From: Minisyncoccota bacterium
Lineage (GTDB): Bacteria; Patescibacteriota; Minisyncoccia; Phycocordibacterales; JAACPR01
DNA: 64,000 nt
NCBI GenBank assembly: GCA_041674225.1
Contig: JBAYWG010000001.1
Coordinates: 390,273 to 454,272, forward strand
Reading direction: 5' to 3'
A program made the position numbers and the translations under genes. Below are positions 6,380-21,171 of this stretch, piece by piece. The first letter of the stretch is position 1. Each line of letters opens with the position of its first letter. The notes beneath the pieces are model-generated. The model ran no database searches, had not been told where the DNA came from, and worked only from the letters and a program-made list of their open reading frames with translations.

Positions 6380-7526
6380 TAAAGCTAGAAAGACTTCTTC
6401 CTGTTTCATTTTTTATTTCTCTGTTGATGTAGCTAAGAGTTAAAACATTTGCTACCAAATACTCGGCAGAACTTCCTGTGTTTGTGCTTACAATAATTCC
6501 TCCAAGAACATTATCTTTAAAAGCTCCACCTCCACTTGAACCCCGCTGCGCTACAGTAGTATCCCCAGTTGCTACGACATCAACTGTGTTTTGTCCGAGT
6601 GTAAAAATTTCTCGAATGCGAACACGGTCTGTTTGAAGCTCTGTGTTTTTTGCAATTTCTAAAGAAGATGTCATTTTCCCAGGATAACCAGCAATTGTAA
6701 CTGTGTCTCCTACATCAAGAAAATTAGAATCAGTATTTATTTTTAAAGAAGGGAATGCAGGTAGAGCGAGTGTTGGATTTGTATTTCCTGTAATCAAAAG
6801 TAATGCATAGTCGTATTTTCCTGTACCTGTTGGAGAAGAATTATTTATTTGACGATAATTTTCTTCAATCCAAGTTTCTGAAATATATAAAGGCACAGCA
6901 TTGAATCCATACAAAGGAATATTTTCTCTGCGAAGTGTGCAGTTGTATCCAGCGTCTTTTAATAAAAATTGTTGGGCGACATGAGCGTTTGTTAACACAA
7001 CTCCACTTGAAGAAATAATAACTCCGCTACCTGTTGAAAGAGAAATCATATTTCCGATTTGTCTGATGCAAAGAATATTCACAAGAACATTTTCGATTGA
7101 ATTTATTGCAGAGGTGTCTGGTGTTGCCGCTGTGGTGACTGTGATTTGCTCAGAAACAATTTCAGGAGATTGTTGTGCTTGTGGAATAGTTTGTGCTGGT
7201 ACAGTGCTGATTGGTGTAATTATTTTTTCTGTAATTTTTATGACTGGAGTTTTGATTGGTTCTGGGGGAATTATTGGTAGGGGAGTTTGAATAGATTTCG
7301 GCTTAGTAATATTTGCATCCGGAAGATTTAAAATATTTATTTTTGGCAGAGGGATTTGAGTTAGTTCTTGAATTAATCCAGGGCTTTCTTCTTCGATTAT
7401 TTCTTCAATTGGGTTTAAATTACTTGAATCATCAATGTCAGCGTGTGGAGAAAGCCCTAAAACTGTTAAAGAGGATACTATTACAAGGAAAACTCTTTGG
7501 GCAATTATTCGAATTAAGAATGGCAT
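6297..7526 (-). CDS. Secreted trypsin-like (S1 family) serine protease with a Pro/Thr-rich linker
   Basis: Signal peptide, TNAHV (catalytic His) and GSSGG (catalytic Ser) motifs. Confidence 0.75.
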   Translation of the reverse strand: MPFLIRIIAQRVFLVIVSSLTVLGLSPHADIDDSSNLNPIEEIIEEESPGLIQELTQIPLPKINILNLPDANITKPKSIQTPLPIIPPEPIKTPVIKITEKIITPISTVPAQTIPQAQQSPEIVSEQITVTTAATPDTSAINSIENVLVNILCIRQIGNMISLSTGSGVIISSSGVVLTNAHVAQQFLLKDAGYNCTLRRENIPLYGFNAVPLYISETWIEENYRQINNSSPTGTGKYDYALLLITGNTNPTLALPAFPSLKINTDSNFLDVGDTVTIAGYPGKMTSSLEIAKNTELQTDRVRIREIFTLGQNTVDVVATGDTTVAQRGSSGGGAFKDNVLGGIIVSTNTGSSAEYLVANVLTLSYINREIKNETGRSLSSFITGNLQTQAEDFELVAPRLEELLMRNL

Positions 7527-7615
7527 GGTTTAACTTTCACTTATTGCCACATCTGTGTCAATCTGATAATCTCAATATTACAACAAATTTTGTTGTGTGT
7601 ATCGTATAGATCTTT

Positions 7616-7689
7616 GCGGGTATAGTTTAATGGTAGAATGACTGCCTTCCAAGCAGTAGATGGGAGTTCGATTCCCCCTACCCGCACCA
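7616..7689 (+). tRNA. tRNA-Gly (anticodon TCC) with genomically encoded CCA
   Basis: Acceptor GCGGGTA/TACCCGC, anticodon stem ACTGC/GCAGT with loop CTTCCAA, T-arm GGGAG-TTCGATT-CCCCC, then A-CCA. Confidence 0.85.
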
Positions 7690-7714
7690 AATTAAAAGTG
7701 TTATCTTTATAGAT

Positions 7715-8467
7715 ATGTTCGAAAAATTCTTAGAAGAATTGGGTCTAAGTGATAAAGAGTCAAAAGTTTATTTAGCATTGTTGGAAGTTGAAAATGATTC
7801 TGTAATCGATTTATCTAAAAAAACAGATATTAACAGAACAACAATTTATCCAGTTTTGGAATCTCTTTCTAAAAAAGGTTTGATTAGTGAAATTAAGGTT
7901 GATAAAAAAGTTCGTTATGCCGCTGAATCTCCTGAGAGATTAGAAACTTATGTTGAAAGAAGAAAAATTCAATTAGAGGAGCAAGAAAGAAAGTTGAAAG
8001 ATATTATTCCGCAGTTGAAGAGTGTGCAGCGGGATAAAGGAGAAAAACCAATCATAAAGTTTTATGATGGTAAGGAAGGAATAATGTCAGCTATAAAAGA
8101 ATATTTTGGACCAAATCCGAAAGGTGGCGATGCTTATTTTTTATATGATTATGATTTAGTTAATGAAATTTTTACCCCACAAGAGATTAAAACTGCCCAA
8201 AATAATAGAAGCCAAGCGAAGATAAATGCATTTTCTTTTTATGCGAGTAAAAACGAGTCACTATCAAACAGTGAGTCATCATCAAGAATTCAAGTTGATG
8301 GTGATAAATATCCAATCTATTGTGATATTGGAGTATATGATGATTATGTAAGAATTCACACTTTAAATAAAAAAGTTTCTGCTATATATATAAAAAACAA
8401 GGATATCGCCGAAACTTTTAAGTCTTTATTTAGAATCGCTTTCGATAATTACAAAAGTAACAAGTAG
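7715..8467 (+). CDS. TrmB-family winged-helix transcriptional regulator
   Basis: N-terminal LSDKESKVYLALLE...TIYPVLESLSKKGLI wHTH typical of the TrmB family. Confidence 0.65.
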   Translation: MFEKFLEELGLSDKESKVYLALLEVENDSVIDLSKKTDINRTTIYPVLESLSKKGLISEIKVDKKVRYAAESPERLETYVERRKIQLEEQERKLKDIIPQLKSVQRDKGEKPIIKFYDGKEGIMSAIKEYFGPNPKGGDAYFLYDYDLVNEIFTPQEIKTAQNNRSQAKINAFSFYASKNESLSNSESSSRIQVDGDKYPIYCDIGVYDDYVRIHTLNKKVSAIYIKNKDIAETFKSLFRIAFDNYKSNK

Positions 8468-8482
8468 TCTAGAAAGAAAAAT

Positions 8483-8518
8483 CTCCCTCGCAGCAAAAGC
8501 TGGAGGGAGTGTTTTTTT
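8483..8518 (+). terminator. Rho-independent terminator
   Basis: CTCCCTC-loop-GAGGGAG hairpin followed by a T7 run. Confidence 0.6.
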
Positions 8519-8959
8519 AAAATTGGACTTATTTAGATATCTCTAAAAATTTGTCCAGAAAACATTTTCAATTTTTAATCTCCAAAGTCGCCCATAATGA
8601 ACTCCTTTCTGTTTTGAAATTTGGTGAACGACCAATTAGTGCTGAATCAACACCCCCACCCGAAACCCTATGCAAGGCTCGGGTGGGGGCGCATCATCTG
8701 CGTGTCTTAGCCGTGCATAGGTCACCTCCTTTCAGTTGAACTATCTGATTGAAATCCTGGTCTAGAAAGACAAGGCAATCAGATTTCTAAGATAGTATAG
8801 CAAATTTTAGATAAATGTCAATACATATAAACAGTTTTGTCTTATATTTCTTTTAAAACACGGCTTATTTATGGTTTTTTTGTTAAAAATGTTTATTTTG
8901 ATTAAATAATTTTCATTGACTTTTAAGTAAAAACGTGATAATATAAGAGAAGAAATTAA

Positions 8960-9062
8960 GTAGCCATAGCCACAAGAGCCTTAATATTAAGACCCTTCTG
9001 GCTATGGCTACCGAGTGGTATATCCGAGCTACACGTCAGTCCATCGTGAAAAACAGGACTCG
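8960..9062 (+). ncRNA. Structured leader element X (copy A): 13-bp hairpin plus conserved GAGUGGUA...GUGAAAAACAGGACUCG tail
   Basis: GTAGCCATAGCCA...TGGCTATGGCTAC perfect hairpin. A paralogous copy at 17794-17895 carries a compensatory C:G to A:U change. Confidence 0.5.
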
Positions 9063-9094
9063 TTCGGCTATCGACAAGAGCCACCAAGTACATT

Positions 9095-9439
9095 ATGAAG
9101 ACATATTTTTCGAACGATTCGAACCCCTCAGTCACTGTTTACTACTGTATCCCTGAGACAGTATTCGAAATAAATTTATTTGGATGTTTCTATATCGCAG
9201 TGGTAAAAAAACCAGAAGGGTTCATATTCTGGTGGGAAAATCCAGACCTGAGTCATCTTGGCCCTGACGATGAACTCCTCGAGGAACACAATCCTAGTGA
9301 ATGTGTTGAGCTTCCTGATGAATTCCTAAGGAAGCTTGAGGAAAAGCTGCGAAATGTTGACCATGTGGACAACCTTTTGTGGGATTCATCTTCGGAACAA
9401 TGGAAAAGCCTTCCGTCTGTTTTGCAGTTTGAAGATTAA
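9095..9439 (+). CDS. Hypothetical acidic protein (114 aa)
   Basis: ORF immediately downstream of element X. Start context AGTACATTATGAA is shared with the next ORF. Confidence 0.4.
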   Translation: MKTYFSNDSNPSVTVYYCIPETVFEINLFGCFYIAVVKKPEGFIFWWENPDLSHLGPDDELLEEHNPSECVELPDEFLRKLEEKLRNVDHVDNLLWDSSSEQWKSLPSVLQFED

Positions 9440-9620
9440 TAGTGGTACTCCACTCGGTTCATAGATTAATACCGTAAAATCTACTTGGAGAACTTCGGTT
9501 CTCCTCTCAACTGAGCTTGCAACAATTTGATAGTTGTAAGTTCACAGAGAGTAAAACGTTCAGACACTCGTTATAAAACAGTCTGTGCAAGTCAAAGCAG
9601 CAATTGACACCTAGTACATT

Positions 9621-10130
9621 ATGAAACCAATTATTGCCTTCTATGAAATGCTCTGCGATCTTATTGAGACCGGAGTGAAAGGAGCTGGTACCGGCAGCTA
9701 TCCTGCAAGGAAGATGGAAATTGATCTTATTAGCTTGTCTGGTAAGGCTCGTGCTTCCAAAAACCCTGTTAGCTGGGTTGGTGCTGACAATGCAAACATC
9801 CTTTCCATGATGTTGCGTTGTATCAACGACAACGAAAACTCAAGCGGCAGACAGTGGGAACTCAGTGTTGAAACTCTGATGATCTCTGCATTCGGAGATC
9901 TGTCCGCCGTTCGTGATACAGAAGCGCTTCAAACTTTCGGACGGTTGAGAAGGGTGTGCTTCATGGACAAGAAAGAACTCTTTCTCTGGAGTCGTAAGAA
10001 AACTGAGAGAGAAGACGGAAGTGCTGTCATTGTGCTGCACGTCAGTGATCTACGAGCTTTTCAGTCTCTGATTCACGTCAGTGGCTCGAAAGGAAACCTC
10101 GAAGATGGTTTGATGATCATCAAGCCTTAA
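9621..10130 (+). CDS. Hypothetical protein (169 aa)
   Basis: ORF downstream of element Y. Protein-like composition. Confidence 0.45.
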   Translation: MKPIIAFYEMLCDLIETGVKGAGTGSYPARKMEIDLISLSGKARASKNPVSWVGADNANILSMMLRCINDNENSSGRQWELSVETLMISAFGDLSAVRDTEALQTFGRLRRVCFMDKKELFLWSRKKTEREDGSAVIVLHVSDLRAFQSLIHVSGSKGNLEDGLMIIKP

Positions 10131-10210
10131 TTGGAAACGCTAAAGGAGAACAGCGTACAACTCCGGCTCTGCATACACTTGCAGAGTCTTTTTATTTTAA
10201 GATATTTAAA

Positions 10211-10241
10211 TAAAAAATAGCCCCTTTTGCAAAGGGCTATT
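10211..10241 (-). terminator. Rho-independent terminator (bidirectional hairpin)
   Basis: TAGCCC-TTTTGCAAA-GGGCTA hairpin flanked by an A-run on the + strand, which is a T-run on the - strand. Confidence 0.55.
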
Positions 10242-10253
10242 AAGTTTAACTTT

Positions 10254-11414
10254 TCAGTTAATCAACCAACTTAACGCCGGTTTCTTGTGGAATATTCTTT
10301 CTGCGATTACCGCATTAGTATATTCTTTGTCTTCGGTGACTTCTTGAATTATCTCTATCCAGTCTGGAATTTGCAATTCATGCTCCAGATTGGTTAGTTC
10401 TATTTCAAGCATCCCAATCTCAACACTCGGATCAGTACTTGTATTGGAGTTTTTGAAGACATCCAGTTCCAAATATTGATTTGCCCAAAGCATACAGTGT
10501 CGAGTTTTGTTTACCGGACATGTGTCTGGTTTAATCATTGAAGACATGAGCTCGAACTCACTTTCTCCGATGATTCTCTCAACTTCGAGTCTTTGGCCTG
10601 GGCCGTGATCGCGTTTTTCAGTCATGAAGTAGGTGTAGAAACCATCGTGACCGCGTTTGCGAATACGGATTTCCGCCTTATCACTTCCTGTTGTTAGATA
10701 AATCTGCTCGATGTCGATTGAGACAGCTTCCTTGGGAATGTTCATTGGATTGAACTTTACTAAGAATTTTCTTTCTCTTTCGACAGGAATCGGCACCCCA
10801 ATAACTGCACAAACTTCTTGATAAACTCGGTGGAGTTTTTCTTGAAAATCGGTACTGTTGTCGACGACTCTCATGTGAGGATGACCAACCCAGGCTTGCT
10901 GAGTTCTCTTATCAAGATCTCTCGCTTGTTGGGGAGTCTCGTGTCTCGCTGAATTGTTTGCCAGAGTGTAGAAATCCTCAGCACCTTCTGCGGCTGTGAC
11001 CATGTGAATGACTGCGTCATATCTCGCATGACTAGCACTCACTGGATTGAGTTCTCTTGTTTGCAGCAGAGACAAGTAGTCTTCTTTTTCCATGTATGCA
11101 CTCCCGTCGGGAATACCACGGTCGTAGATGACTACAATCTTTTGATCTGCTGGAAGATTTTTTGCAATCTCCAAAATGTTATTTTCGATGCTCAAACTTA
11201 TGTTGAGAATCGCATTTTGAAGCATGTCTCCCGAGATTGAATTTTTGCCTGGCATTACTCCAGCGTTGATACATAGGGTCGCCATCTCTGGGATGACAAA
11301 AACCACATGATTTTCAATCTCTTCAATTTTCTCTCTCAAGAAAGAGAGGCCACTAGACTTTCCTCCGCAAGGGCCACCGGTCAGGACTATTCGGTATATG
11401 TTTTTGGGTTGCAT
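10254..11414 (-). CDS. P-loop AAA-type ATPase fused to a C-terminal CYTH (triphosphate tunnel) domain
   Basis: Walker A TGGPCGGKSS at the N-terminus. The C-terminal half starts ERERKFLV and has the alternating acidic/basic strands of CYTH. Confidence 0.65.
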   Translation of the reverse strand: MQPKNIYRIVLTGGPCGGKSSGLSFLREKIEEIENHVVFVIPEMATLCINAGVMPGKNSISGDMLQNAILNISLSIENNILEIAKNLPADQKIVVIYDRGIPDGSAYMEKEDYLSLLQTRELNPVSASHARYDAVIHMVTAAEGAEDFYTLANNSARHETPQQARDLDKRTQQAWVGHPHMRVVDNSTDFQEKLHRVYQEVCAVIGVPIPVERERKFLVKFNPMNIPKEAVSIDIEQIYLTTGSDKAEIRIRKRGHDGFYTYFMTEKRDHGPGQRLEVERIIGESEFELMSSMIKPDTCPVNKTRHCMLWANQYLELDVFKNSNTSTDPSVEIGMLEIELTNLEHELQIPDWIEIIQEVTEDKEYTNAVIAERIFHKKPALSWLIN

Positions 11415-11530
11415 AGATTGGTTTAGTTGGTTGTGAATGAACTGCTACTCTTCACTGATTATGTTTAAAAGGTTCGTTGTTTTCTAGTCTTTCTGCGTTG
11501 AGTCAAATTTTTTAGACTAAAATGTCTAAA

Positions 11531-12202
11531 CTATTCTTCATCAGTTGTATTTAAAAAATATTCTGCAAAAAAGTGATCTTTCTTGTTTTCTTTAACAAGT
11601 TTTAATATCTTTTTCGCTCCAGGTAAAATGTTTTTGCTATCTATTTCATCAAATGTTCCCCAGAAGCATTCTCCAACTGTATTCCCGTCTTCTAATTCTC
11701 CAGTCACTTCTGTTCCAGAGAAGACATGGCAAAGAAGGTGTGTAACTAATTCTGTTTCATCGTGCACAGCAATATAAACATCGCCCCTGTGTTTTAGTTT
11801 TGCAGATAATCCAGATTTTTCTTTCAGTTCTCTTTCTGCCGAATCTTTTATTCTTTCCTCGAGGTGAATTTTCCCATATGGAAAAGAAACAAAATTAATA
11901 AAGGGCGCTCTTTTTTGACGGTAGAGTAAATACTTTCCATCTTTTTCAATTACCATTGATGTAACAATTTTGGGTTGAGTTCTTTCTTCAAATGTATCAA
12001 AAGACATCCTGCTGATTAGGTGTTTTCCTGCAGATGTCAGACTGTATGTTTTATCTTTTGAAATAATCAAACCAAGTTTTGTTAGGGAGTTTAGGTGGTA
12101 CACAAAAACATTTCCCTCGACTTCTTTATCTTTTAGATCTGAGTAACGGATCTTTTTCTGTAGAGAAAGTTTTTTAAGGATGTCTTTTTGAATTTCGTGC
12201 AT
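11531..12202 (-). CDS. Winged-helix + Nudix hydrolase domain protein
   Basis: Nudix box GKIHLEERIKDSAERELKEKSG, N-terminal HTH-like segment. Confidence 0.7.
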   Translation of the reverse strand: MHEIQKDILKKLSLQKKIRYSDLKDKEVEGNVFVYHLNSLTKLGLIISKDKTYSLTSAGKHLISRMSFDTFEERTQPKIVTSMVIEKDGKYLLYRQKRAPFINFVSFPYGKIHLEERIKDSAERELKEKSGLSAKLKHRGDVYIAVHDETELVTHLLCHVFSGTEVTGELEDGNTVGECFWGTFDEIDSKNILPGAKKILKLVKENKKDHFFAEYFLNTTDEE

Positions 12203-12348
12203 GGTGAAATATTAACATATAACAAATTAATTCTAAAAACTCACGATTTTGTATTATAAATAAAGATCATTTTGGCAAAGTTTGTGTGTAACAATTTAAT
12301 ACGGATTCTGTAATTAATTATTATTTTTGAGGGTTATTTGATACAATC

Positions 12349-13086
12349 TTGTTAATTATGAAAAATAAAATACTTGAGCAGATTGGTTTATCAAAGAATG
12401 AGAGTGAGATTTATTTAGCACTTTTAGATTTAGGACCTTCAAGTATTTCAAAAATCTCTGAGAAAACCGCCATCCACCGACCACTTATTTATAAAGCACT
12501 ACCTGAACTTTTGGAGAAAAAATTGGTTAGCCAAACTCAGAAAGGGAAAAATGTGCTTTATGTGGCGGAACCACCAAATAGATTAGAATCAATTTTTGAT
12601 GAATTAAAATATCAATTCTTTGAACTTTTACCTGATCTAGAAGACTCATACTCAAGCAACAATAAAAAACCGAAAATTAGATTTTTGGAAGGGAAGGATG
12701 GAACTAAAAGAGTTTTTGATGATGTTGTGAGAAGTTTGAATAAAGGAGATACTTTTTATAGATACACTTCAAACAAAGATGGAAAAGAGAAAAAAGATCG
12801 ATATGTTCCGAGAATTTATTGGACTATGCGTGACGCTAAAAAATTGGAGAGGCAAGTGATCACAAACGAGAAGACTGCAAAAGCAAAAATAGAAAAAATT
12901 GATAGATTTGTGAAAGGAATGCCAGAAGATTTTGGACCTTTTGAACACAACATTACAGAAATTATTTATGGAGACAGAGTTTCTTTTATAGACTACAACT
13001 CAGACACCGCGATGATTATTGAAAGCAAACCGATTGCTGAGTTTCAAAAACATATCTTCAAGACATTTTATAAGAAGTTAAGTTAA
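12349..13086 (+). CDS. TrmB-family transcriptional regulator (paralog of 7715-8467)
   Basis: LSKNESEIYLALLDLGPSSISKIS...LIYKALPELLEKKLV wHTH. Similar length and architecture to the first TrmB-like gene. Confidence 0.6.
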   Translation: MLIMKNKILEQIGLSKNESEIYLALLDLGPSSISKISEKTAIHRPLIYKALPELLEKKLVSQTQKGKNVLYVAEPPNRLESIFDELKYQFFELLPDLEDSYSSNNKKPKIRFLEGKDGTKRVFDDVVRSLNKGDTFYRYTSNKDGKEKKDRYVPRIYWTMRDAKKLERQVITNEKTAKAKIEKIDRFVKGMPEDFGPFEHNITEIIYGDRVSFIDYNSDTAMIIESKPIAEFQKHIFKTFYKKLS

Positions 13087-14436
13087 TTACTCGTGCCACC
13101 TTCGTTCTGCTCGAATTGGTGCATCTGCAACTAGTTTTATGCGAAGGTCTGAAGGAAGAAAATCAAGGGTGAATGATCTTCCTTCGATTACAATCTTGCT
13201 TTCAGAAGTGTCTCGGATTTTTGATATTTCCCTAGCTGAAAATTCTATAACTTCTTTCTGATATTTTTTTGCGATGTCAGGGATTTTATTTTCAACCCTG
13301 CTTTCTCGGAGTGCTTGTCCGTAAACTTTTTTGATATCTAGATTCGTGTGAAAGAGTCTTAATTCTCCTGATGTGCTCTTGTAGTACATGTTTTTGAAGA
13401 TATTTTTTGTGAATTTTATTTTTGCTAGGTTTAGTAAAGTGAGGTATCTGAAAATGTCTCCCATTGAGAAGATTTTTGCGTTTAGTTTTTTTGCCAATTC
13501 TTTTGTGGTTGAGCTTTTTCCGACTCCACTTTTTCCTTCTAGAGAAATTATTTTGGTCTCCTTTTTTATGTCAGTCTCGATTATTTTGATAACATTTTTT
13601 ATTCCAATTACTTTTCCTGTATCTACTGTGATTGTTTTCTTAGGTTTTTGTATTCTCAATCCTTTGTTTGAAAGATTTTCTTTATTTACTTTATCTATCT
13701 GATCATCTCTGTGATCTCTTTCAATTATTGAATGTAGTATTTCACTTACCCCATGTGATTTTATTCTATGAGTTATTTTCTCTTTTCCTATTTCTGAGAC
13801 CACGCAATCTTTTATTATTGTATTCAGTTCAGCTGTTTTAAATTCCGAGAAGTATTTGTCACCAAAATCTCCGAGACCAGGAACTATATAACCTTTTTCG
13901 TCTAAACATTTATCTAGTTGTCCGATTATTATTTTAACTTTTGGATAAAGAGTTAAGATTTTATTTACTCCCTCTGGTGAGGCTAAGATGTTTGCTACGA
14001 CTATTTTTTCTTCTGCGACATTTTTCTTTAAACATCTTTCGATTGCGTCGATAATAGTGTTTCCAGTTGCTAACATGGGATCAACTATGATGACAAAGTT
14101 GTTTTTGTTTATTTTTCCCTCTTCAAAATCAACCTCTGTTTCTAGTGTTTCCTCGTTTCGCTTTGAGCTTAGGTGGTAATAATTTTTTATTTTAAATTTC
14201 TTTAGGCTCGGGATAAAAGCGAGTGCAGATCTCCAGGGAAGAATAACGACCGTGTTATTTTTTTCTATATGATTTAAAGATTCTTTAATTATTTTGTCTG
14301 TAATTATTTCAGAATTTTCTCTAAAGATTTTTCCTTTGGTTTGTTCATGAAAAGATTTGTTGGGATATCCGGCTCTTAAAATTTTAAATGCGGTGTTGAA
14401 TTTTTTATCTGGAGTTACTATTTTTATTTTCTTCAT
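13087..14436 (-). CDS. Uracil phosphoribosyltransferase fused to cytidylate kinase
   Basis: N-terminal half has DPMLATGNT and YIVPGLGDFGDKYF (UPRT). C-terminal half has P-loop ISLEGKSGVGKSS and cmk-like sequence. Confidence 0.75.
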   Translation of the reverse strand: MKKIKIVTPDKKFNTAFKILRAGYPNKSFHEQTKGKIFRENSEIITDKIIKESLNHIEKNNTVVILPWRSALAFIPSLKKFKIKNYYHLSSKRNEETLETEVDFEEGKINKNNFVIIVDPMLATGNTIIDAIERCLKKNVAEEKIVVANILASPEGVNKILTLYPKVKIIIGQLDKCLDEKGYIVPGLGDFGDKYFSEFKTAELNTIIKDCVVSEIGKEKITHRIKSHGVSEILHSIIERDHRDDQIDKVNKENLSNKGLRIQKPKKTITVDTGKVIGIKNVIKIIETDIKKETKIISLEGKSGVGKSSTTKELAKKLNAKIFSMGDIFRYLTLLNLAKIKFTKNIFKNMYYKSTSGELRLFHTNLDIKKVYGQALRESRVENKIPDIAKKYQKEVIEFSAREISKIRDTSESKIVIEGRSFTLDFLPSDLRIKLVADAPIRAERRWHE

Positions 14437-14460
14437 TTAATTTTATTATAGTTTATTTTT

Positions 14461-14512
14461 TCCGTTTCGTCCTTTTGGACTCATCAGGCAAAGAACTTAC
14501 CTTGCGACAGTG
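14461..14512 (-). ncRNA. Hammerhead ribozyme, type III (HHR-1)
   Basis: Minus-strand read: CACUGUC|GCAAGG-UAAGUU-CUUUGC (stem I) CUGAUGAG UCC-AAAA-GGA (stem II) CGAAAC GGA. Full catalytic core, GUC cleavage triplet. Confidence 0.8.
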
Positions 14513-14581
14513 GACGGATGGAACGTGCATCCGTCAATTTGTTTCAGTTTCAGGAAGTTTTTTCTCCCTAGTGCGCCTCGA

Positions 14582-14962
14582 TTAGCCGTGGCCGATGACC
14601 GGGACGCGACCGATCTCCTCTCTCTCCTCTTGGGCTCGTTGCCTTTCGCGGGCTTCTTCGTGGCCGAAAGAGCGGAGATAACTTTCGTCATGCTCTCGCT
14701 GCTCTTGCTCGTAGGATGCCCGAAGCGGTGTTCGGATCAAGGATGAGAGTTCGTCTCTGACCTCTTTGGGCCATGATTTCCTGATCCGCAGGAGGTCGCC
14801 GATGAATCTCTCAGCGTCATTGATATCGAGGTGTCCTCGCATCATTCGGCAGAGGTCTTCGGAGGTGTTTGGGTGTTGTCTGTTGGTCGGCATGGGTCGT
14901 TTGGGGCGTGGAGTTGGTGGGGACTGTTTCGTCTTGCTTCTACACTTGTAGAAGAGACTCAT
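14582..14962 (-). CDS. Hypothetical small charged protein between two hammerhead ribozymes (coding status uncertain)
   Basis: 126-aa ORF. Its 5' end overlaps HHR-2, so the true start is probably an internal Met. Confidence 0.3.
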   Translation of the reverse strand: MSLFYKCRSKTKQSPPTPRPKRPMPTNRQHPNTSEDLCRMMRGHLDINDAERFIGDLLRIRKSWPKEVRDELSSLIRTPLRASYEQEQREHDESYLRSFGHEEARERQRAQEEREEIGRVPVIGHG

Positions 14963-14990
14963 CAGGCGAGATACTTATCTCGCGACAGAA
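14921..14990 (-). ncRNA. Hammerhead ribozyme, type III (HHR-2)
   Basis: Minus-strand read: UUCUGUC|GCGAGAU-AAGU-AUCUCGC CUGAUGAG UCU-CUUCUAC-AAGU-GUAGAAG-CA-AGA CGAAAC AGUCC. Stem III is CUG/CAG. Confidence 0.8.
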
Positions 14991-15036
14991 GACGGATGGA
15001 ACGTTCATCCGTCAATTTGGTTCAGTTTCAGGAAGT

Positions 15037-15360
15037 TTATTCTTCCTCTGCGCCGGTGCGAATGTACCCTCTTCGCTCGAGTTCCTTCAGGCAGATATGC
15101 ATTTCCCTCGGACTACCTGCTTGAAACAGGACTCGCATTTGTTTGCGGGTTAGTCGGGCAGGGTTTGCTAGATTTGCTTCCGCTCTTTTCATTAGGCGAT
15201 TGAAGGCTTTCTCGCAAGCTGGCGGTGCGTGGCGGTCTTTGGCCTTTGGTGGTTCGGTTTGCTCGCGCATCTTGGCTTTTTGTGCGGAGATTATGCCGTT
15301 GTAGCGTGGTACGCAGGTGCAGGATGTGGTCATGGGTAGTTTGGGGTTTGGGGTTAACAA
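15037..15360 (-). CDS. Hypothetical small protein, possible HTH at C-terminus (coding status uncertain)
   Basis: 107-aa ORF upstream of HHR-2 on the minus strand. Confidence 0.3.
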   Translation of the reverse strand: MLTPNPKLPMTTSCTCVPRYNGIISAQKAKMREQTEPPKAKDRHAPPACEKAFNRLMKRAEANLANPARLTRKQMRVLFQAGSPREMHICLKELERRGYIRTGAEEE

Positions 15361-15747
15361 AGAACAAATTTATTTTTTTGTAAATTGTAAGGTCTAATCC
15401 AACATATTTATAGTCTAGTCAAATTGAGTCAATTGTTTTTATCAGAAGTGGTATTTTTATGTGCAGGGGGTTCAGGCAATATTATAAGTAAAGTATTTGA
15501 AAATATTTTTTATTTATGGTCAATGTGTACAGAGATGGGAGCGAGGTGAATTTAGTGGCTTTAAATATAGCTATTATTTGATTTTTCAGTGTAATTTTTA
15601 GTTTCAAAAAAACTTTTTTATACAACTTTTTTAAAAAAGTAGCAAAAAAATATAAATTCTGTCTAAAATTTGAAACATTATAAAAATGTAAATATGGCTT
15701 AAAATATGATAAAAAATGATATCTAAAATTAGAAACGACAAAAACGC

Positions 15748-15776
15748 TTGACAAAAAATGAAAATGGGTATATACT
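15748..15776 (+). promoter_or_regulatory. Consensus sigma70-type promoter (TTGACA-17 nt-TATACT)
   Basis: Perfect -35 TTGACA at 15748-15753, 17-nt spacer, -10 TATACT at 15771-15776, in an AT-rich region with upstream direct repeats. Confidence 0.6.
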
Positions 15777-15837
15777 ACTTTCAAACCTAAAACAAGCACA
15801 CAACATTCAACAACCAGCCAATAGAAAGGAGGAGGGC

Positions 15838-15888
15838 ATGATTTACCAAATCTACCCCGATGGGACCATTGTGGTCGTCCGCCGATAG
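15838..15888 (+). CDS. Candidate 16-aa leader peptide (MIYQIYPDGTIVVVRR)
   Basis: ATG 5 nt downstream of the strong SD AAGGAGGAGGG, about 55 nt from the predicted TSS. Stop TAG. Confidence 0.3.
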   Translation: MIYQIYPDGTIVVVRR

Positions 15889-16342
15889 GCCGGAATAGTG
15901 GGTTCGTTCAAACCGAATCTGCTCCCTTAAAATAAGATCTTCCACACGGTCTTATTTTAAGGTAGCGGAAGTTACCTAGTTCTTTAAAAGATAAAAGATA
16001 GCCTGCACCTTAATCAGAGTATTGCTAGTACTTTGATTAAGGCGCAGGACATTAACAGTTGTTTGGCGGCCTAAAAATAGGGAAACAAAGTTTCCCCTTT
16101 CGGCTGATCACCGATTGAACTACCCAGGAGGTTTGTGTCATGTTTGAACACGAGCAAGAAAGGTGGAGGAAGATGTTCACAATTTAAAGAACATCTGGAA
16201 GGTTGGTAACCGTAAACTGTTGTGGTGCATGTAAGGGTGCCACGATTGTCCTTTGGACAATCAAAAGTCAATGCCTAATCAATATTAGGTACACACGTCT
16301 ACACGAAGTGATGGAATGCTTAACCAGCTCCATGCACTTCGT

Positions 16343-16396
16343 CCTGTCGCGAGATGCATGTCTCGCCTGATGAGTCCAAAAGGACGAAACAGTTGC
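16343..16396 (+). ncRNA. Hammerhead ribozyme, type III (HHR-3)
   Basis: CCUGUC|GCGAGA-UGCAUG-UCUCGC CUGAUGAG UCC-AAAA-GGA CGAAAC AGUUGC. Shares stem I with HHR-2 and stem II with HHR-1. Confidence 0.85.
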
Positions 16397-16524
16397 ATTT
16401 TTAAAATATAAAATCTTTGTACTGCATTCCGTGTTCAATTCTTTTGGAAGATAAACACCACTCAATTTAATGTGGCCCCCAAAATTGGACACAGTGCTCG
16501 GTATAAAGATTTATACCAACAGTT

Positions 16525-16540
16525 CTTTAAATAAAAATAA
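16525..16540 (+). repeat. 16-nt direct repeat CTTTAAATAAAAATAA (copy 1 of 3)
   Basis: Exact 16-mer, also present at 17307 and 17776. Confidence 0.7.
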
Positions 16541-17252
16541 TCATTTTCTTGGAACTCCGCAGTCACAAAATTGAAACTAAAATTTGGTTTTAATTTTGTG
16601 GCTGTGGAGGGCCCGATAGACTCGCAAGAGTTGATAGGATAGTTGCCAAAAGACAATTACTATCCGGGTGTGTAAAAACATCTAAATCTCCATCTTGAAA
16701 CTAGTGTGCTCCGGGAGGGGTATCCAAACATTAGTGTAGAGAGCTGTAGAAGTCTGCAAACTTCGAAAGCAGTTAGAAGCGTTCAGGGCTGCAACCCAAA
16801 AACGTGGAAAGCCAAGTGTGCATCAGGCACGGCTCGCAAGGCTGTGTGCAGTGCACCCCTCTTTCTTGGCATGTCTTACAACTATATAAAGTTGCTAACG
16901 GCATAAAGAGGGAAATCAATCATCGTAGGGCTGTGCCACAATACCAGAGAATTGGGAAAACTCTGGGTGAAAAGTGGAAGAGGAACGCCACCTCAAATGG
17001 AAAAAGCCCCGGCCAGGGAAATATCCAAGAAGATGATTGAGGATAAAGGGTGCGCACACACCCTAAAACAATTCGGTGAGATTCCGAAATGTGTGGTCAA
17101 AAGACAGCTACCGTTAGCAGCGGTGGTCGGCTCGCAAGAGTATTGCTGTCATTGAGAGTATGTGAGCTTCGGCTTCTGACCTTTGTACTCTCTCCCAAAT
17201 TTTTCGGTTCGGAACTAGGTTCAACCGGGTTGTAAGTTATCCAAAAACTTTC

Positions 17253-17302
17253 TCTGTCTCGAAATGTAATTTCGACTGATGAGCTCAAAAGAGCGAAACA
17301 GA
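17253..17302 (+). ncRNA. Hammerhead ribozyme, type III (HHR-4)
   Basis: UCUGUC|UCGAAAU-GUA-AUUUCGA CUGAUGAG CUC-AAAA-GAG CGAAAC AGA. Stem III is UCUG/CAGA. Confidence 0.85.
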
Positions 17303-17306
17303 TGAT

Positions 17307-17322
17307 CTTTAAATAAAAATAA
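17307..17322 (+). repeat. 16-nt direct repeat CTTTAAATAAAAATAA (copy 2 of 3)
   Basis: Exact copy, immediately 3' of HHR-4. Confidence 0.7.
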
Positions 17323-17775
17323 ATTCTCTGCACCGAATTGCATTTAAGTTTTTTAAATTCAGTTCGGTGCAGGGAGTTGTTGCGACCCCATAGTACGTGA
17401 GTCAAAGAGGGATAAATGATACCCTCGCGAAAAGATCAGCTGCAACATGCTAAAAGAGCTTAGGAATTTATGCTCGATCGAAAAATTTCCAATCATATGA
17501 CCAAGGTCGAAAGACGCTGTTACATCTCCCAGAAGAGATGGTGCGACGAGGCAATCTAGAACGCCTTTTCAATCGCATTACCTAATGCCCTTCAACCGGC
17601 GGTTTATATTACTCGAGATTAGATCTCTTGCGGATATAGATTGGTTAACAAACGACAGGTTAGGTATCTCGTGTTGAATCGGGACATCATCGCAACAATT
17701 TTTCGCACTTTTTCAAAAAAAGTGCACTTCATTGAGCTTACGAAATTTGATATTCGCAAGTTCATAGAGTTTGTA

Positions 17776-17791
17776 CTTTAAATAAAAATAA
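17776..17791 (+). repeat. 16-nt direct repeat CTTTAAATAAAAATAA (copy 3 of 3)
   Basis: Exact copy, immediately 5' of element X copy B. Confidence 0.7.
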
Positions 17792-17793
17792 AA

Positions 17794-17895
17794 GTAGACA
17801 TAGCCAAAGGAATTTTTAAATAGAATTTCTTTGGCTATGTCTACTGAGTGGTAGATGAGCTGCACATTGGTCCGTTTGTGAAAAACAAGGACTCG
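17794..17895 (+). ncRNA. Structured leader element X (copy B)
   Basis: GTAGACATAGCCA...TGGCTATGTCTAC hairpin plus UGAGUGGUAGAU...GUGAAAAACAAGGACUCG. Paralog of 8960-9062. Confidence 0.5.
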
Positions 17896-17924
17896 TCTGA
17901 CGAACGTATCGTCACCCCAGACTT

Positions 17925-18245
17925 ATGAGCAAGCACCACTATCGTAAACCTGCTGCTAAACCTGTGTGTCCTTGCGGACATGCTACGACCGATGCTCTCT
18001 GGGTGTTAGACATCCAAGGAGACCGACCTATCAGGGTTCATCGGCCATGCGGTCAGGCGATCTTGAAGAACGCGCCGAAAGGAACGCAGGGCAAAATTCG
18101 TCCTTCCCGCGAGCTCAAAGAGATTCACAAGAAGCAGAGGTACGAGCGCGAGCTCTCCTCCAGTTTCTGGAACTCCAAGCTTGAAGGTGTCAAAGGCAAG
18201 TCTTTACAAGACTTGGTGAAGACCGCTCCCGACAGGCAGTCCTGA
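17925..18245 (+). CDS. Hypothetical basic Cys-containing protein (106 aa)
   Basis: ORF directly after element X. CPCGH...PCGQ suggests a small zinc-binding fold. Confidence 0.4.
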   Translation: MSKHHYRKPAAKPVCPCGHATTDALWVLDIQGDRPIRVHRPCGQAILKNAPKGTQGKIRPSRELKEIHKKQRYERELSSSFWNSKLEGVKGKSLQDLVKTAPDRQS

Positions 18246-18381
18246 TGGATTGGTTGAAACAAGTTTCTCTAGCTCTTTTCCTTTCAAAAAAGAGTCGCAC
18301 TGTCAGCGGATAATAATCAACCCCGCTAGACTAAGAGTTTGCAGATTTCTTAAATCTGCACTTACTTGAGCTTGCAACAAG

Positions 18382-18780
18382 ATGTTGTTGGTTCATAGAG
18401 TGTTAGTTCTTTCAAAAACAAAACAAAAAAATATGATCATCTCAAATGCATTTTCACTCAACATGTTTGAAACCCTCGAAGGAGAAATTCTCAGCAGAGA
18501 GCTTAGTGTCACGGAAATCTCGAAAGAGCAGGCTGTTGAACTTTTAACAGACCCTGAGCTTGGAGGAGTAGATTCAGCTGTTGGACATGCCGACACTGCT
18601 GCGCTTTTTTCTACGATTCTCGGAATCGAGATCCCGTGTGAGCGCAAGACGATTCAACTCAACCCTGAAAATGGTTGGCTTATTGTCGGGCAGTATCATG
18701 GACCACGTCTTGAAGAAGGAAGTACTACACTTCCGGAGGGTGCCAGTATTCGCTGGTACGAAATCGAGATTAAGTCTTGA
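18382..18780 (+). CDS. Hypothetical protein (132 aa; may start at internal Met 18439)
   Basis: ORF downstream of element Y copy B. Confidence 0.45.
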   Translation: MLLVHRVLVLSKTKQKNMIISNAFSLNMFETLEGEILSRELSVTEISKEQAVELLTDPELGGVDSAVGHADTAALFSTILGIEIPCERKTIQLNPENGWLIVGQYHGPRLEEGSTTLPEGASIRWYEIEIKS

Positions 18781-18789
18781 GAGATTATT

Positions 18790-19077
18790 ATGAATTTGGA
18801 AGAAATTTCAAAGCTCTATGATGATCCTCAAGATGCAATGAGGATTTTACAAACATCTGTTGAAGGAAAACACAGATATTTCCGAAACGAGAAAGCTTTC
18901 GAAAGGTTTCTGAGAAAAGAACAAGACTCATATCAGCGTCGCAAGACTGCTGGTGTTTCAAGTCCGGTTTCACTTCTTGAGAATACTCTCGACTCTTCTC
19001 CTTTAAGGAACGAAACTTTGCCCCCGGGCAGTAATGGTTTCAATGTGATTATCTGGCAGGAAACTTCCAAAGGATAA
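18790..19077 (+). CDS. Hypothetical protein (95 aa)
   Basis: ORF tightly following the previous one (10-nt gap), followed by a terminator. Confidence 0.45.
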   Translation: MNLEEISKLYDDPQDAMRILQTSVEGKHRYFRNEKAFERFLRKEQDSYQRRKTAGVSSPVSLLENTLDSSPLRNETLPPGSNGFNVIIWQETSKG

Positions 19078-19085
19078 TCATTGAA

Positions 19086-19112
19086 CCCTGCAATAAAATG
19101 TAGGGTTTTTTC
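19086..19112 (+). terminator. Rho-independent terminator
   Basis: CCCUGCA-AUAAAA-UGUAGGG hairpin followed by a T6-7 run, 9 nt after the ORF stop. Confidence 0.55.
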
Positions 19113-19127
19113 TTTAAATTTATACAA

Positions 19128-19158
19128 AGCAAAAAGCCGGCGGAGCCGGCTTTTTGCT
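19128..19158. terminator. Bidirectional Rho-independent terminator
   Basis: GCAAAAAGCCGGC-GGA-GCCGGCTTTTTGC, a perfect hairpin with A/T runs on both sides. It lies downstream of hup on the minus strand. Confidence 0.7.
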
Positions 19159-19229
19159 TATTTACTTAAAATTCTGTGAAGATAAATTTAATAACTTAAA
19201 ATTTAACCGTTTTGAACTTGTACGTATAT

Positions 19230-19502
19230 TTATTTAACAGCTTCTTTCAAAGCTTTTGCAGCTCTAAACTTTGGAGTTTTCATAGCTGGAACTTTGATAG
19301 CTTCACCTGTTCTTGGGTTTCTAGCTGTTCGGGCTGCTCGTGTTTTAGCTTCAAAAATACCGAATCCTGCAACTGAAACTTCTTCTCCAGATGTTAAAGA
19401 TTTGATAATTGAATCAAAAACAGCGTCAACAACCTTTTCTGCTTCTACCTTTGTTGTACCTAATACTTCATGTACCTTTTCTACAATGGCTGCTTTATTC
19501 AT
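19230..19502 (-). CDS. hup: DNA-binding protein HU
   Basis: 90 aa. MNKAAIVEKV...GFGIFEAKTRAARTARNPRTGEAIKVPA matches the HU/IHF fold signature. Confidence 0.9.
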   Translation of the reverse strand: MNKAAIVEKVHEVLGTTKVEAEKVVDAVFDSIIKSLTSGEEVSVAGFGIFEAKTRAARTARNPRTGEAIKVPAMKTPKFRAAKALKEAVK

Positions 19503-19659
19503 ATATGTTGGTTGTATTAATCAATCCGTAAAAAACGGGTTTGTTAACCGATAACCGCTTAAAACGACTTTGTTATTAAGCTGGAAATAATTATATAAAA
19601 CAAGGGTTTTATAGCAATAGAGCCACGAGTACACCTTGTTTATAACTTTTTGTCAAAAA

Positions 19660-21171
19660 TTATCTTGCAACTTCAATAACTCTGTTTTCTCGTATCACTG
19701 TAACCTTGATTTCCCCAGGGTATTTTAGGTCTTTTTCTATTTTCAGGGCTATATTCCTAGCTAAATTACGCGCTTCTAAATCTGAAATTTCTTCAGGATT
19801 TACAAAAATTCTTATTTCACGTCCTGCTTGTAGGGCGTAAGATTTTTCTACTCCTTTAAATTCATTGGCTATAGCTTCCAAATCATTTAAGCGTTTTAAG
19901 TAGTTTTCTGTGTTATCTCTTCTGGCTCCTGGACGACTTCCAGAAATAGAATCCGCAACTTGAACGATAATTGATTCAGGTGTTTCATAAGGGTATTCTT
20001 CGTGATGTGCTTGCATAGCTTTTACAACAGATTCATCTGCTCCAAATTTTTGTAAAATTCTGCGCCCGATTTCTACGTGAGTTCCGGCAATTTCGTGATC
20101 AACTGCTTTTCCAATATCGTGAAGAAGTGCACCAGCTTTGGCTACTCGCACATCTGCACCTATTTCTTCAGCAATCATTCCTGCAATGTGAGACATTTCG
20201 ATTGAGTGTTGCAAAACATTGTGACCATAACTCGTTCGAAAGTGAAGTCTTCCTAAAATAGAAATAATTCGTGGGTCTAAATTAAAAATCCCACATTCAT
20301 AAGCGGCTTGTTCTCCTTTTTCAATGATTATTTTATTTATAGATTTCTTTGCTTTTTCAACGCATTCTTCGATTTTTGCAGGTTGAATTCGTCCATCTAG
20401 AACTAATTGTTCCAAAGCTATTTTTGCAATTTCACGACGAACTGGATCAAAAGAAGAAATTGAGATTGTCGCTGGTGTATCATCAATAATTAATTCAACA
20501 CCAGTAGCTCTTTCAAAACTTTTTATGTTTCGACCTTCTTTTCCAATGATTTTTCCTTTTATTTCGTCAGAAGGAAGAGTGACACTGCTAGAAAAAATAT
20601 CTGAAGATACAGAGTTCCCAAGTCGGTGGATAGCTGTGGTTATAATATCGCGAGCTTTTGCTTCCAATTTTTCTTTTCCACTGATATCCATTTTTTGTAA
20701 ACGAATCAAAATATCTTCGGATTGTTCTTTTTCAAGATTTTCAATTAGTTCTTTTTTAGCATCTTCTTTTGAAATTTCTGCAATTTTTTCTATAGAATCA
20801 ATTCTTTCTTTTTCAAGTTTCTTTAATCTGTCTTCAATTTCTTCAATTTGAGTCTCTTTTATTTTAATCTCTTCCGACAATTCATCCAAATCAGTCTGTC
20901 TTTTGTCTAGATAACTTTCTTTATTTATCAGTCTAGCTTCTGTTTTCTCTACTTTTTCTTCAAATTCAATAGCTGTGTCTTTGGCTTCTTTAATAATATT
21001 CTGAGCTTCCTCTCGTGCTGAGACCATCATTTCCTTTATTTCTAGCTCCATTGAGCCTCTTTTACCCAGAGAAATTATGAATCGCAAAAACCATCCCAGA
21101 GCTATTCCGGCTAATCCTGCTGCCATTGCTATTATTAATACTATTAGTAGAGACATGATTTTTAGCGCCAA
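19660..21171 (-). CDS. rny: Ribonuclease Y
   Basis: N-terminal TM helix, coiled-coil, KH domain (GKIIGKEGRNIK) and HD domain (HDIGK), 503 aa. Confidence 0.9.
   Translation of the reverse strand: MALKIMSLLIVLIIAMAAGLAGIALGWFLRFIISLGKRGSMELEIKEMMVSAREEAQNIIKEAKDTAIEFEEKVEKTEARLINKESYLDKRQTDLDELSEEIKIKETQIEEIEDRLKKLEKERIDSIEKIAEISKEDAKKELIENLEKEQSEDILIRLQKMDISGKEKLEAKARDIITTAIHRLGNSVSSDIFSSSVTLPSDEIKGKIIGKEGRNIKSFERATGVELIIDDTPATISISSFDPVRREIAKIALEQLVLDGRIQPAKIEECVEKAKKSINKIIIEKGEQAAYECGIFNLDPRIISILGRLHFRTSYGHNVLQHSIEMSHIAGMIAEEIGADVRVAKAGALLHDIGKAVDHEIAGTHVEIGRRILQKFGADESVVKAMQAHHEEYPYETPESIIVQVADSISGSRPGARRDNTENYLKRLNDLEAIANEFKGVEKSYALQAGREIRIFVNPEEISDLEARNLARNIALKIEKDLKYPGEIKVTVIRENRVIEVAR

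Follow-up and report, generated by a model that had tools for sequence, protein, structure and literature searches.

In this study we analysed a window of 64,000 nucleotides (nt), meaning the whole stretch of DNA considered here (contig JBAYWG010000001.1, positions 390,273 to 454,272), from a Minisyncoccota bacterium. A predicted sigma70-type promoter at 15748-15776 is probably the promoter of the rightward, putatively hammerhead-processed unit of a 4.7-kb accessory island on this Paceibacterota chromosome. Four hammerhead ribozymes, together with a 0.9-kb RNA bounded by two of them, were missed in a preliminary description of the site, and it is these elements that define the purpose of the promoter. 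As judged from the sequence, the locus is a hammerhead-punctuated operon of a known kind, but with a cargo that is non-coding and structure-constrained; we regard this cargo as unusual because its central segment (Seg1) is an outlier among comparable viral segments. The elements that carry this interpretation are given below (coordinates are positions in the window, plus denotes the forward strand).

15748..15776, plus strand: sigma70-type promoter (-35 TTGACA at 15748-15753, 17-nt spacer, -10 TATACT at 15771-15776), 11 of 12 consensus positions
15783..15825, plus strand: C/A-rich leader of 43 nt, predicted to be unpaired in a three-sequence consensus fold
15826..15836, plus strand: Shine-Dalgarno (SD)-like purine run AAAGGAGGAGGG / AAAGGAGGAGG(G), recognised from the sequence
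15838..15888, plus strand: small open reading frame (mini-ORF) MIYQIYPDGTIVVVRR, ATG at 15838, 16 codons and TAG (15886-15888)
15889..16340, plus strand: Seg0, the structured rest of the 5' fragment, about 450 nt of hairpins
16341..16395, plus strand: HHR1, type III hammerhead (RF00008, 40.4 bits, E = 1.8e-6), predicted cut C16348/G16349
16396..17250, plus strand: Seg1 body, 855 nt without a reading frame (predicted cleavage product 16349-17258, 910 nt)
17251..17304, plus strand: HHR2, type III hammerhead (RF00008, 43.7 bits, E = 2.1e-7), predicted cut C17258/U17259
17305..17924, plus strand: Seg2, the long structured 5' untranslated region of ORF106, about 620 nt
14991-14921, minus strand: HHR-M0, type III hammerhead (RF00008, 35.2 bits), predicted cut 14984/14983
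14513-14459, minus strand: HHR-M1, type III hammerhead (RF00008, 35.0 bits), predicted cut 14506/14505

Two related sequences could be compared with much of the island: L228, which was found through a homologue of the leftward gene ORF-B and aligns with 14481-14891 and 15331-17302, and L309, which aligns with 14441-15047 and 15473-16536 and extends into the UPRTase gene.

The window contains four exact CUGAUGAG...CGAAAC cores, where 0.05 would be expected. All four align end to end with the Rfam type III hammerhead RF00008 (E-values of 2e-7 to 2e-5), carry GUC cleavage triplets and are arranged two per strand, the plus- and minus-strand pairs diverging from the AT-rich region 15370-15780 that holds the promoter. 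Each conforms to the three-helix type III fold, with stems I and II closed and stem III open, and covariation is present: stem II of HHR1 changes from UCC/GGA to CUC/GAG in L228, and stem I of HHR-M1 shows a compensatory change from A-U to G-C in relatives. HHR2 is 100% identical in L228, and it is also identical over 46 nt in L107, a relative of only 71% identity. Self-cleavage would be expected at four sites, generating 5'-OH and 2',3'-cyclic-phosphate ends.

The promoter had been described as a perfect consensus match, rare and unlikely to occur by chance. The hexamers and the 17-nt spacer are present exactly as placed, but the match is 11/12 and not 12/12 (-35, 6/6; -10, 5/6, TATACT in place of TATAAT), and rarity did not hold up, since the two strands of the window contain five matches of this quality compared with a mean of 4.5 in 200 composition-preserving shuffles. 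This counts against the promoter, and its function is argued here from the conservation of the hexamers in relatives, not from the quality of the match. TTGACA and TATACT are unchanged in L228 (92% identical) and L309 (88%), where only positions 15745, just 5' of the -35 box, and 15765, in the spacer, vary. A TTGACT-17-TATAGT promoter stands at the head of an analogous hammerhead operon in the same HU-TrmB neighbourhood (L235), and TATAAT-type -10 boxes are found in the host. On these comparisons, the proposal of a sigma70-type promoter firing rightward into a structured RNA is well supported, with transcription predicted to start near A15783.

Three further elements were placed in the control region, which is 95.4% identical between the window and L228.

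15481..15523, minus strand: candidate divergent promoter of the minus-strand unit, TTGACC (15523-15518), 17 nt and TCAAAT (15500-15495), or a -10 TATAAT (15486-15481)
15662..15676, plus strand: direct repeat copy 1 (DR1), TCTAAAATTTGAAAC, 15 nt, in AT-rich DNA 5' of the promoter
15722..15736, plus strand: direct repeat copy 2 (DR2), TCTAAAATTAGAAAC, 15 nt, 12 nt upstream of the -35 box

The candidate minus-strand promoter, which is a weaker proposal than the plus-strand one, is kept in L228 and L309 (as TATACT in the latter, in which the sequence downstream of 15468 has been replaced). The AT-rich stretch between the divergent promoters (15569-15699) is imperfectly palindromic (65% over about 130 nt), shows 95% conservation in relatives and might, for example, bind a protein or bend the DNA. 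Another of the 11/12 promoter matches, of the form TTGACA-16-TATACT, lies on the minus strand at 8790-8821, inside a gene-free gap of 630 nt (8467-9095); it has no ORF downstream, and a small RNA might be transcribed from it.

Seg1 is the most constrained part of the locus. It comprises the hairpins of a conserved domain D1 (16396-16520), an A-rich motif (16522-16540), a long hairpin (16555-16609) and a core (16610-17250) with GCAA, GNRA-like and UUCG loops, and its predicted fold has a z-score of -8.5 relative to shuffled sequences. The core (16561-17250) shares 96.9% identity with L228, compared with 92.2% for the coding sequence of ORF-B. When the structure predicted from the window sequence alone was laid over L228, the changed pairs comprised six compensatory and nine one-sided compatible changes against a single broken pair; slid controls, in which partners were shifted by 1-2 columns, gave 0-2 compensatory, 3-8 compatible and 10-13 broken pairs. 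A pair-counting tool likewise recorded six double changes against 0-1 in slid controls, and the observed values were reached by 7 of 500 shuffles. Two of the six double changes fall in stem II of HHR1, and the rest in hairpins with GNRA loop switches (GUAAAA to GAAA, GCAA to GAAA). These data reveal selection on the pairing of the 0.9-kb Seg1 RNA. At one long-range helix of the prediction (columns 192-207 with 678-693), L228 carries an overlapping deletion of 18 nt, and the helix is probably incorrect.

The flanking segments are also structured. Seg0 is 93.6% identical in L228, where its peripheral hairpins (16241-16305) have been swapped for other hairpins, and the fold of the whole 5' fragment (15783-16348) has z = -6.5. 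Seg2 (z = -9.6) shares about 71-80% identity with L107 over approximately 500 nt, with identical stretches of up to 29 nt and a covarying long hairpin, and contains two copies of an A-rich motif with a hairpin (17304-17378 and 17773-17845). Module junctions (16522-16609, 17304-17378 and 17773-17845) are marked by the motif CTTTAAATAAAAATAA and, after it, a hairpin of 22-27 bp; read on the minus strand these junctions resemble intrinsic terminators (a hairpin, then UUUAUUUUUAUUU), and the one at 16522 is partly deleted in L228 and is also the point at which L309 diverges. Beyond the ribozymes and short motifs, no paralogy was detected among Seg0, Seg1 and Seg2.

None of these segments encodes a protein. 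Across 15780-17925, TAA, TAG and TGA are all present in all three frames, so that an alternative genetic code was rejected as an explanation of the ORF-free stretch, and a protein search with a 2157-residue concatenation of the stop-free six-frame pieces of the same interval, by which spurious ORF calls on homologous RNAs would be caught, returned nothing. A 152-residue "protein" is called in L228 (891-1349) antisense to Seg0 and HHR1; the call is spurious and lies on structured RNA, since the frame is broken in the window.

This absence of coding capacity distinguishes Seg1 from the 55 segments that lie between consecutive hammerheads on one strand in the fetched IMG/VR loci. In all 55, the longest sense stop-free stretch covers at least 33% of the length, usually more than 47%, and the cargo is coding, often behind C/A-rich leaders, as is the case for ORF-A, ORF-B and ORF106 of the island. 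The lowest case (L084) holds several small ORFs behind such leaders and, with z = -1.4, shows no unusual degree of structure; Seg1, with 31% stop-free, no start-led ORF and z = -8.5, is an outlier. In many of the viral contigs among the IMG/VR loci L003-L106 (e.g. L075, L055, L096, L031 and L084), two or three closely related type III hammerheads of the form CUGAUGAG-NNC-AAAA-GNN-CGAAACAG flank small ORFs behind C/A-rich leaders, and no flank resembles the island.

Searches for relatives of the structured RNAs returned little. Rfam 15, with E up to 10, gave only hammerheads as known RNA families in 15200-19800, and the covariance models of GOLLD, ROOL, OLE, HEARO and raiA did not match the 0.9-kb RNA at the same limit; at gathering score, Rfam found only tRNAs, none of them (nor a tmRNA) within the island. 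No similar DNA was found in phage and plasmid collections. Exact-pattern scans yielded no further relatives for a Seg1 26-mer in viral contigs, a Seg1 23-mer in GTDB genomes, D1 21-mers in metagenomes and viral contigs, two Seg2 motifs in viral contigs, or the 3' cassette motif (described below) in metagenomes and viral contigs; an empty scan here means no match, or only generic hammerheads or random hits.

Several observations weigh against the interpretation proposed above. All four hammerheads score 35-44 bits, under the Rfam gathering threshold of 48.5, mainly owing to a short stem III (3-5 bp) whose outer pairs are missing, and the cleavage triplet of HHR1 is changed from GUC to GUA in L309. 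Support for Seg1 comes from one informative relative, as L309 diverges completely after D1. For Seg0, nine pairs are kept and five broken outside the hairpin-swap region, which is only weakly above slid controls, and the covariation of Seg2 with L107 on the minimum free energy structure is no better than in such controls. Finally, the whole case is computational and draws on three close relatives.

The SD followed by an ATG and a 16-codon ORF, noted in the preliminary description, was found at the 5' end of the predicted transcript. The leader in front of it is 98% identical in L228, and the other ORFs of the island, like ORFs in viral hammerhead arrays, have comparable C/A-rich leaders in front of them. 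The SD is the same in L228, and in L309 GGAGGAGGG becomes GGAGTAGGG, with AAGGAG, still of a functional type, intact. Within the mini-ORF the relatives show a synonymous CCC>CCA change, ATT>GTA (Ile>Val) and an in-frame insertion of 3 nt, with the stop codon kept; the C-terminus reads ...TVVVVRPR in L228 and ...TVVVVRRR in L309. Of the 28 start-led ORFs of at least 10 codons in 15783-16520, it is the sole ATG-led one that remains open at similar length in both relatives despite changes; two short TTG-led ORFs among the other 27 are retained at similar length, one being invariant and the other having 15 codons in L228. The mini-ORF is plausibly real, since its frame is preserved in relatives, and we put its translation at roughly even chances.

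The SD itself is a weaker argument for translation than was first assumed, because the host hardly uses such sequences. In the host gene set (the 48 ORFs of at least 150 amino acids in the whole window), SD sequences precede 2 genes, and a TATAAT-like box ends 6-8 nt before the ATG in 15, which indicates, on sequence grounds, that the host uses leaderless mRNAs. Considering that 2 of the 48 host genes have an SD, and that the 3' end of the 16S rRNA gene lies outside the window, the SD at 15826-15836 may be inert. It is therefore conceivable, albeit with a clearly lower probability than that given to translation, that the mini-ORF is untranslated, and that the purine run and ATG are part of a leader RNA structure or a product of chance, the frame having been kept by luck at low divergence. 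A second SD-ATG pair (16127-16187, ATG at 16140) is destroyed in both L228 and L309, so such pairs arise by chance in purine-rich RNA. Moreover, pairing is possible between the SD (GGG) and codons 6-7 (CCC), and the substitutions, the Ile>Val change included, are also compatible with small hairpins (GACCA-UUG-UGGUC becoming GACCG-UAG-UGGUC); it also has to be considered that the conservation of the mini-ORF was judged on three close relatives only. Against this explanation stand the indel length, a multiple of three, the retained stop codon and AAGGAG, as well as the position of the ORF, which lies where the ORFs of other cassettes begin, after an unpaired C/A-rich leader.

If there is no peptide function, an alternative role of the SD might be the binding of a 30S subunit as a 5' protector. 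STAB-SD is a 5' mRNA stabiliser of Bacillus thuringiensis cryIIIA, and the GAAAGGAGG within the SD is identical to this stabiliser; the alternative is suggested by this identity and by the RNase Y gene encoded next door.

The suggestion that the mini-ORF is a leader or regulatory peptide controlling the downstream structured RNA by an attenuation-like mechanism, with the upstream repeats as operators or iterons, appears unlikely. The SD spacing is ideal, the ORF is preserved in relatives and the AT-rich control region is 95% conserved; moreover, a weak terminator-like hairpin (15960-15977, then UUCUUU) occurs 72 nt past the stop codon. However, two other stable hairpins intervene, neither the single nor the consensus folds contain a conserved terminator/antiterminator pairing beside or after the ORF, and there is no regulatory codon run; the conserved elements downstream are ribozymes rather than terminators, the first conserved processing element being the hammerhead 450 nt further on. 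The two repeats lie about 60 bp apart upstream of the promoter, as had been reported, and differ by one mismatch. They are two copies only, an equal or longer one-mismatch repeat is found in 6% of dinucleotide shuffles of the 423-nt, 24% GC region, and the word TGAAAC is only about 2-fold enriched as a candidate protein-binding site. In relatives the copies mutate independently and are not retained as repeats (DR2 C>A in L228 and L309, giving TATAAAATTAGAAAC; DR1 G>A in L309, giving TCTAAAATTTAAAAC). We read both copies as part of an A/T-rich upstream region, and DR2 is more likely to belong to an A/T-rich UP-like region than to be an operator. A toxin-like peptide is also not indicated, for the product has 16-17 residues with a polar PDGT centre and no membrane segment, and no antisense promoter was found.

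As regards the 910-nt RNA itself (16349-17258), we tentatively propose that it founds a new class of large structured non-coding RNAs, whose ends are made by flanking hammerheads and which may be circularised: a non-coding cassette in the hammerhead arrays of Patescibacteria, with the mini-ORF as a ribosome-loading cap in a host that otherwise initiates without SD sequences. A rather improbable view is that the unit represents a circular RNA encoded in DNA, or else a mobile element at the RNA level (retrozyme- or viroid-like), formed by cleavage at both ends and then ligation. The unit is delimited by two same-strand hammerheads, HHR1 and HHR2 share CUGUC...GAAACAG stem III strands, so that a hybrid ribozyme across the ends is possible, and the end chemistry suits RtcB-type ligases. 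The relative L107 (1527 nt; an ORF106 homologue with a long leader) begins and ends inside a hammerhead identical to HHR2, its start (1-30) and end (1480-1527) overlapping by 26 nt within it; it could be a circle, or else a unitig that the assembly broke off at the repeated ribozyme, and such breaks explain its ends equally well. Spliced or circular products of bacterial arrays have been raised as conceivable but were not detected (Perreault et al., PMC3088659). Furthermore, the unit has no long direct repeats resembling those of retrozymes, is present in one copy in 64 kb and has a branched rather than rod-like fold, and no RNA ligase or reverse transcriptase was recognised among about 20 scanned of the 48 long ORFs of the window.

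The least convincing alternative, namely that Seg0, Seg1 and the Seg2 leader are decayed gene cassettes without function and that only the hammerhead-punctuated small-protein operon matters, can draw on the fast turnover of cassettes, on the A-rich motifs resembling ORF leaders at module junctions and on the replacement of the Seg1 body in L309, but it is quite unlikely in view of the conservation of Seg1 above neighbouring coding sequence, changes that preserve pairing by 15 to 1, fold z-scores of -6.5 to -9.6 with several GNRA and UUCG loops, and the lack of any residual reading frame. A functional large non-coding RNA, itself a tentative proposal, is ranked above decay because of this conservation and these pair-preserving changes.

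The island (about 14455-19160, approximately 4.7 kb) has a GC content of 42-44%, compared with about 33% in the flanking DNA, and lies between an HU gene (19230-19502, minus strand) and a UPRTase-cytidylate kinase (UPRTase-CMK) gene (13087-14436, minus strand). Gene callers left it almost empty. An RNase Y gene is located immediately beside it, the product of which is 85% identical to that of one metagenome-assembled genome (MAG) and 64-68% identical to those of Taylorbacteria/Parcubacteria MAGs. The remaining features of the two units are as follows.

17925-18245, plus strand: ORF106, small gene
18433-18780, plus strand: DUF1874/STIV_B116-like small gene
18790-19077, plus strand: ORF95, small gene
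19083..19159, plus strand: tandem terminators closing the plus unit, of which the second (19127-19159) is bidirectional and is also that of the convergent HU gene
14459..15333, minus strand: minus-strand unit, in the order ORF-A, motif and hairpin, HHR-M0, ORF-B, motif and hairpin, HHR-M1
15333-15037, minus strand: ORF-A, then the 3' motif and hairpin at 15036-14991
14893-14582, minus strand: ORF-B, then the 3' motif and hairpin at 14557-14513

No strong plus-strand terminator was found before 19083, and the plus strand is therefore treated as a single transcription unit; the terminator hairpin next to HU is conserved in L229. Among 5.8 billion protein clusters, ORF106 has a single homologue (63%); an exact-pattern scan of viral contigs gave no relatives of it, and its single-sequence AF2 model (pLDDT 71) gave no PDB match at E < 0.4. 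Homologues of ORF-B are 90-91% identical. Pfam at E up to 1 returned only insignificant hints for ORF-A, ORF-B, ORF106 and ORF95; residues 63-93 of ORF-A, for example, matched the winged helix-turn-helix domain of LexA with an insignificant E of 0.11.

ORF-A and ORF-B are each followed by a 3' module, CTTCCTGAAACTGAA(A/C)CAAATT and a hairpin GACGGATG..CATCCGTC (GACGGAT..ATCCGTC). It is found directly before a hammerhead behind three unrelated ORFs (15036-14991 and 14557-14513, minus strand, and L107 1430-1475), and its hairpin may protect new 3' ends. The minus-strand hammerheads lie 22-28 nt upstream of the start codons of ORF-B and UPRTase-CMK (the latter 22 nt past HHR-M1), which by analogy may aid initiation in an SD-less, leaderless-prone host. 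A TATAAT box is present 10 nt ahead of the UPRTase-CMK start codon as well, so that expression of this gene may come from read-through with cleavage and, in addition, from a leaderless mRNA.

The cassettes of the island are exchanged rapidly. The ORF-A cassette (ORF, 3' motif, hairpin, hammerhead and C/A-rich leader; 14892-15330) is absent in L228 and is replaced in L309 (about 1222-1458) by an unrelated 57-codon ORF, with breakpoints in the repeated leader CCCAAAC.ACCCATG; in L309 the Seg1 body is also replaced, straight after the A-rich motif at 16522. The family of the island is rare, and hammerheads were found in only 2 of the 80 syntenic Patescibacteria loci fetched: L235 (RNase Y 67% identical), with ORF126-hammerhead-ORF177-hammerhead-ORF276 between TrmB and HU (7900-10250, minus strand), and L242, with one hammerhead with a long stem II (10075-10156). 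The interval of about 11 kb from HU to a tRNA and a trypsin-like protease (6297-19502) contains the island, UPRTase-CMK, two TrmB paralogues, NUDIX and AAA_28; the corresponding interval in the 85% relative L229 (7400-11002) holds a different gene, of the AP endonuclease family. By its gene content, this appears to be a variable zone next to a tRNA gene. L229, the closest genome, was considered as an "empty site" and rejected, as the whole interval differs and there is no clean insertion boundary.

Taken together, the elements of the locus suggest the following course of events. Transcription would proceed from about 15783 for approximately 3.4 kb to the tandem terminators (19083-19159), and the RNA would start with an unstructured C/A-rich leader, a strong SD and an ORF of 16-17 codons, a layout the same as that before the real ORFs of the island, plus the SD. 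The SD and mini-ORF might load a 30S subunit or a ribosome at the 5' end, so that a small peptide is translated and/or the 5' fragment is stabilised in the manner of STAB-SD. Self-cleavage of HHR1 and HHR2 after C16348 and C17258 would yield three products: a 566-nt 5' RNA with the mini-ORF; a 910-nt structured, ORF-free RNA with 5'-OH and 2',3'-cyclic-phosphate ends, which might accumulate as a stable species, linear or circular; and an mRNA for ORF106, the DUF1874 protein and ORF95, with a structured leader of about 620 nt after a 46-nt hammerhead remnant. The leftward unit, from the same AT-rich control region, would be cut by two hammerheads between ORF-A, ORF-B and UPRTase-CMK, and hairpins just upstream of the ribozymes could protect the new 3' ends.

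Bacterial hammerheads came to light in their hundreds in 2011, and in the usual picture they serve to trim polycistronic mRNAs of phages. In this island, a pair of hammerheads is positioned to excise a protein-free, strongly structured RNA that is conserved more tightly than the adjacent genes. If cleavage occurs, the locus would provide a concrete case of ribozymes maturing a large non-coding RNA instead of an mRNA, would offer structural studies a new large RNA as a candidate, and would serve as a natural test bed for the influence of 5'-OH and cyclic-phosphate ends, or of ribozyme-made 5' ends near start codons, on how stable RNAs are and how they are translated in an SD-less bacterium. As for annotation, a 3.5-kb "gene desert", blank in PGAP and Prodigal, turns out to be densely packed with RNA elements.

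Certain features of the locus recall known systems. As with STAB-SD, the 5' part of a long transcript contains a strong SD with GAAAGGAGG that the main genes do not use, and RNase Y is encoded by the host, immediately beside the island; unlike STAB-SD, this SD is followed at correct spacing by a conserved ORF of 16-17 codons, only the 566-nt 5' fragment could be protected after hammerhead cleavage, and the host almost never uses SD sequences. Seg1 resembles GOLLD, ROOL, OLE and raiA in being several hundred nt long, multi-branched and GNRA-rich, and more conserved than neighbouring genes in accessory, mobile-looking DNA, but it differs from them in lacking an Rfam match at E = 10 and in being known from two near-identical sequences. 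We know of none of these four that is bounded by two self-cleaving ribozymes, as Seg1 is, and, to our knowledge, a hammerhead-excised large non-coding RNA was not known before.

The non-coding, hammerhead-delimited unit of 600-1000 nt with ligatable ends is reminiscent of retrozymes and viroid-like hammerhead circular RNAs (PMC5680766, PMC7229834); unlike retrozymes, its ribozymes are not embedded in long terminal repeats and only the approximately 50-nt ribozymes are repeated, and the unit is present as a single copy in the window, in a bacterial chromosomal context conserved across assemblies, with a branched fold. Ribozyme-dependent translation has been described in RNA viruses (bioRxiv 10.1101/2024.05.16.594327), and in the haloviruses HF1/HF2 a hammerhead is found 13 nt before a helicase start codon (PMC3088659). 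The minus-strand hammerheads before ORF-B and UPRTase-CMK are similarly placed, and in an SD-less or leaderless host new 5' ends near start codons could matter, but the plus-strand hammerheads are followed by hundreds of non-coding nt.

The closest parallel is provided by the prophage arrays in which multiple hammerheads flank single genes or short gene blocks, and in which transcripts of about 2 kb were cleaved in vitro (Perreault et al. 2011, PMC3088659). That hammerheads flank genes and process polycistronic RNAs has thus already been described (PMC3088659, PMC6765202), and a later review still lists the function of bacterial hammerheads as an open question (PMC6765202). As in those arrays (PMC3088659), a single transcript carries several type III hammerheads in the space of a few kb, individual small genes of unknown function are bordered by them, the composition of the region is foreign, and cleavage would split a polycistronic RNA into gene-length pieces. 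Unlike them, two successive modules of the island are ORF-free and strongly structured, one of these being more constrained than the genes; the island resides in a Patescibacteria chromosome with no phage genes nearby, and its hammerheads are found on both strands, diverging from a single control region.

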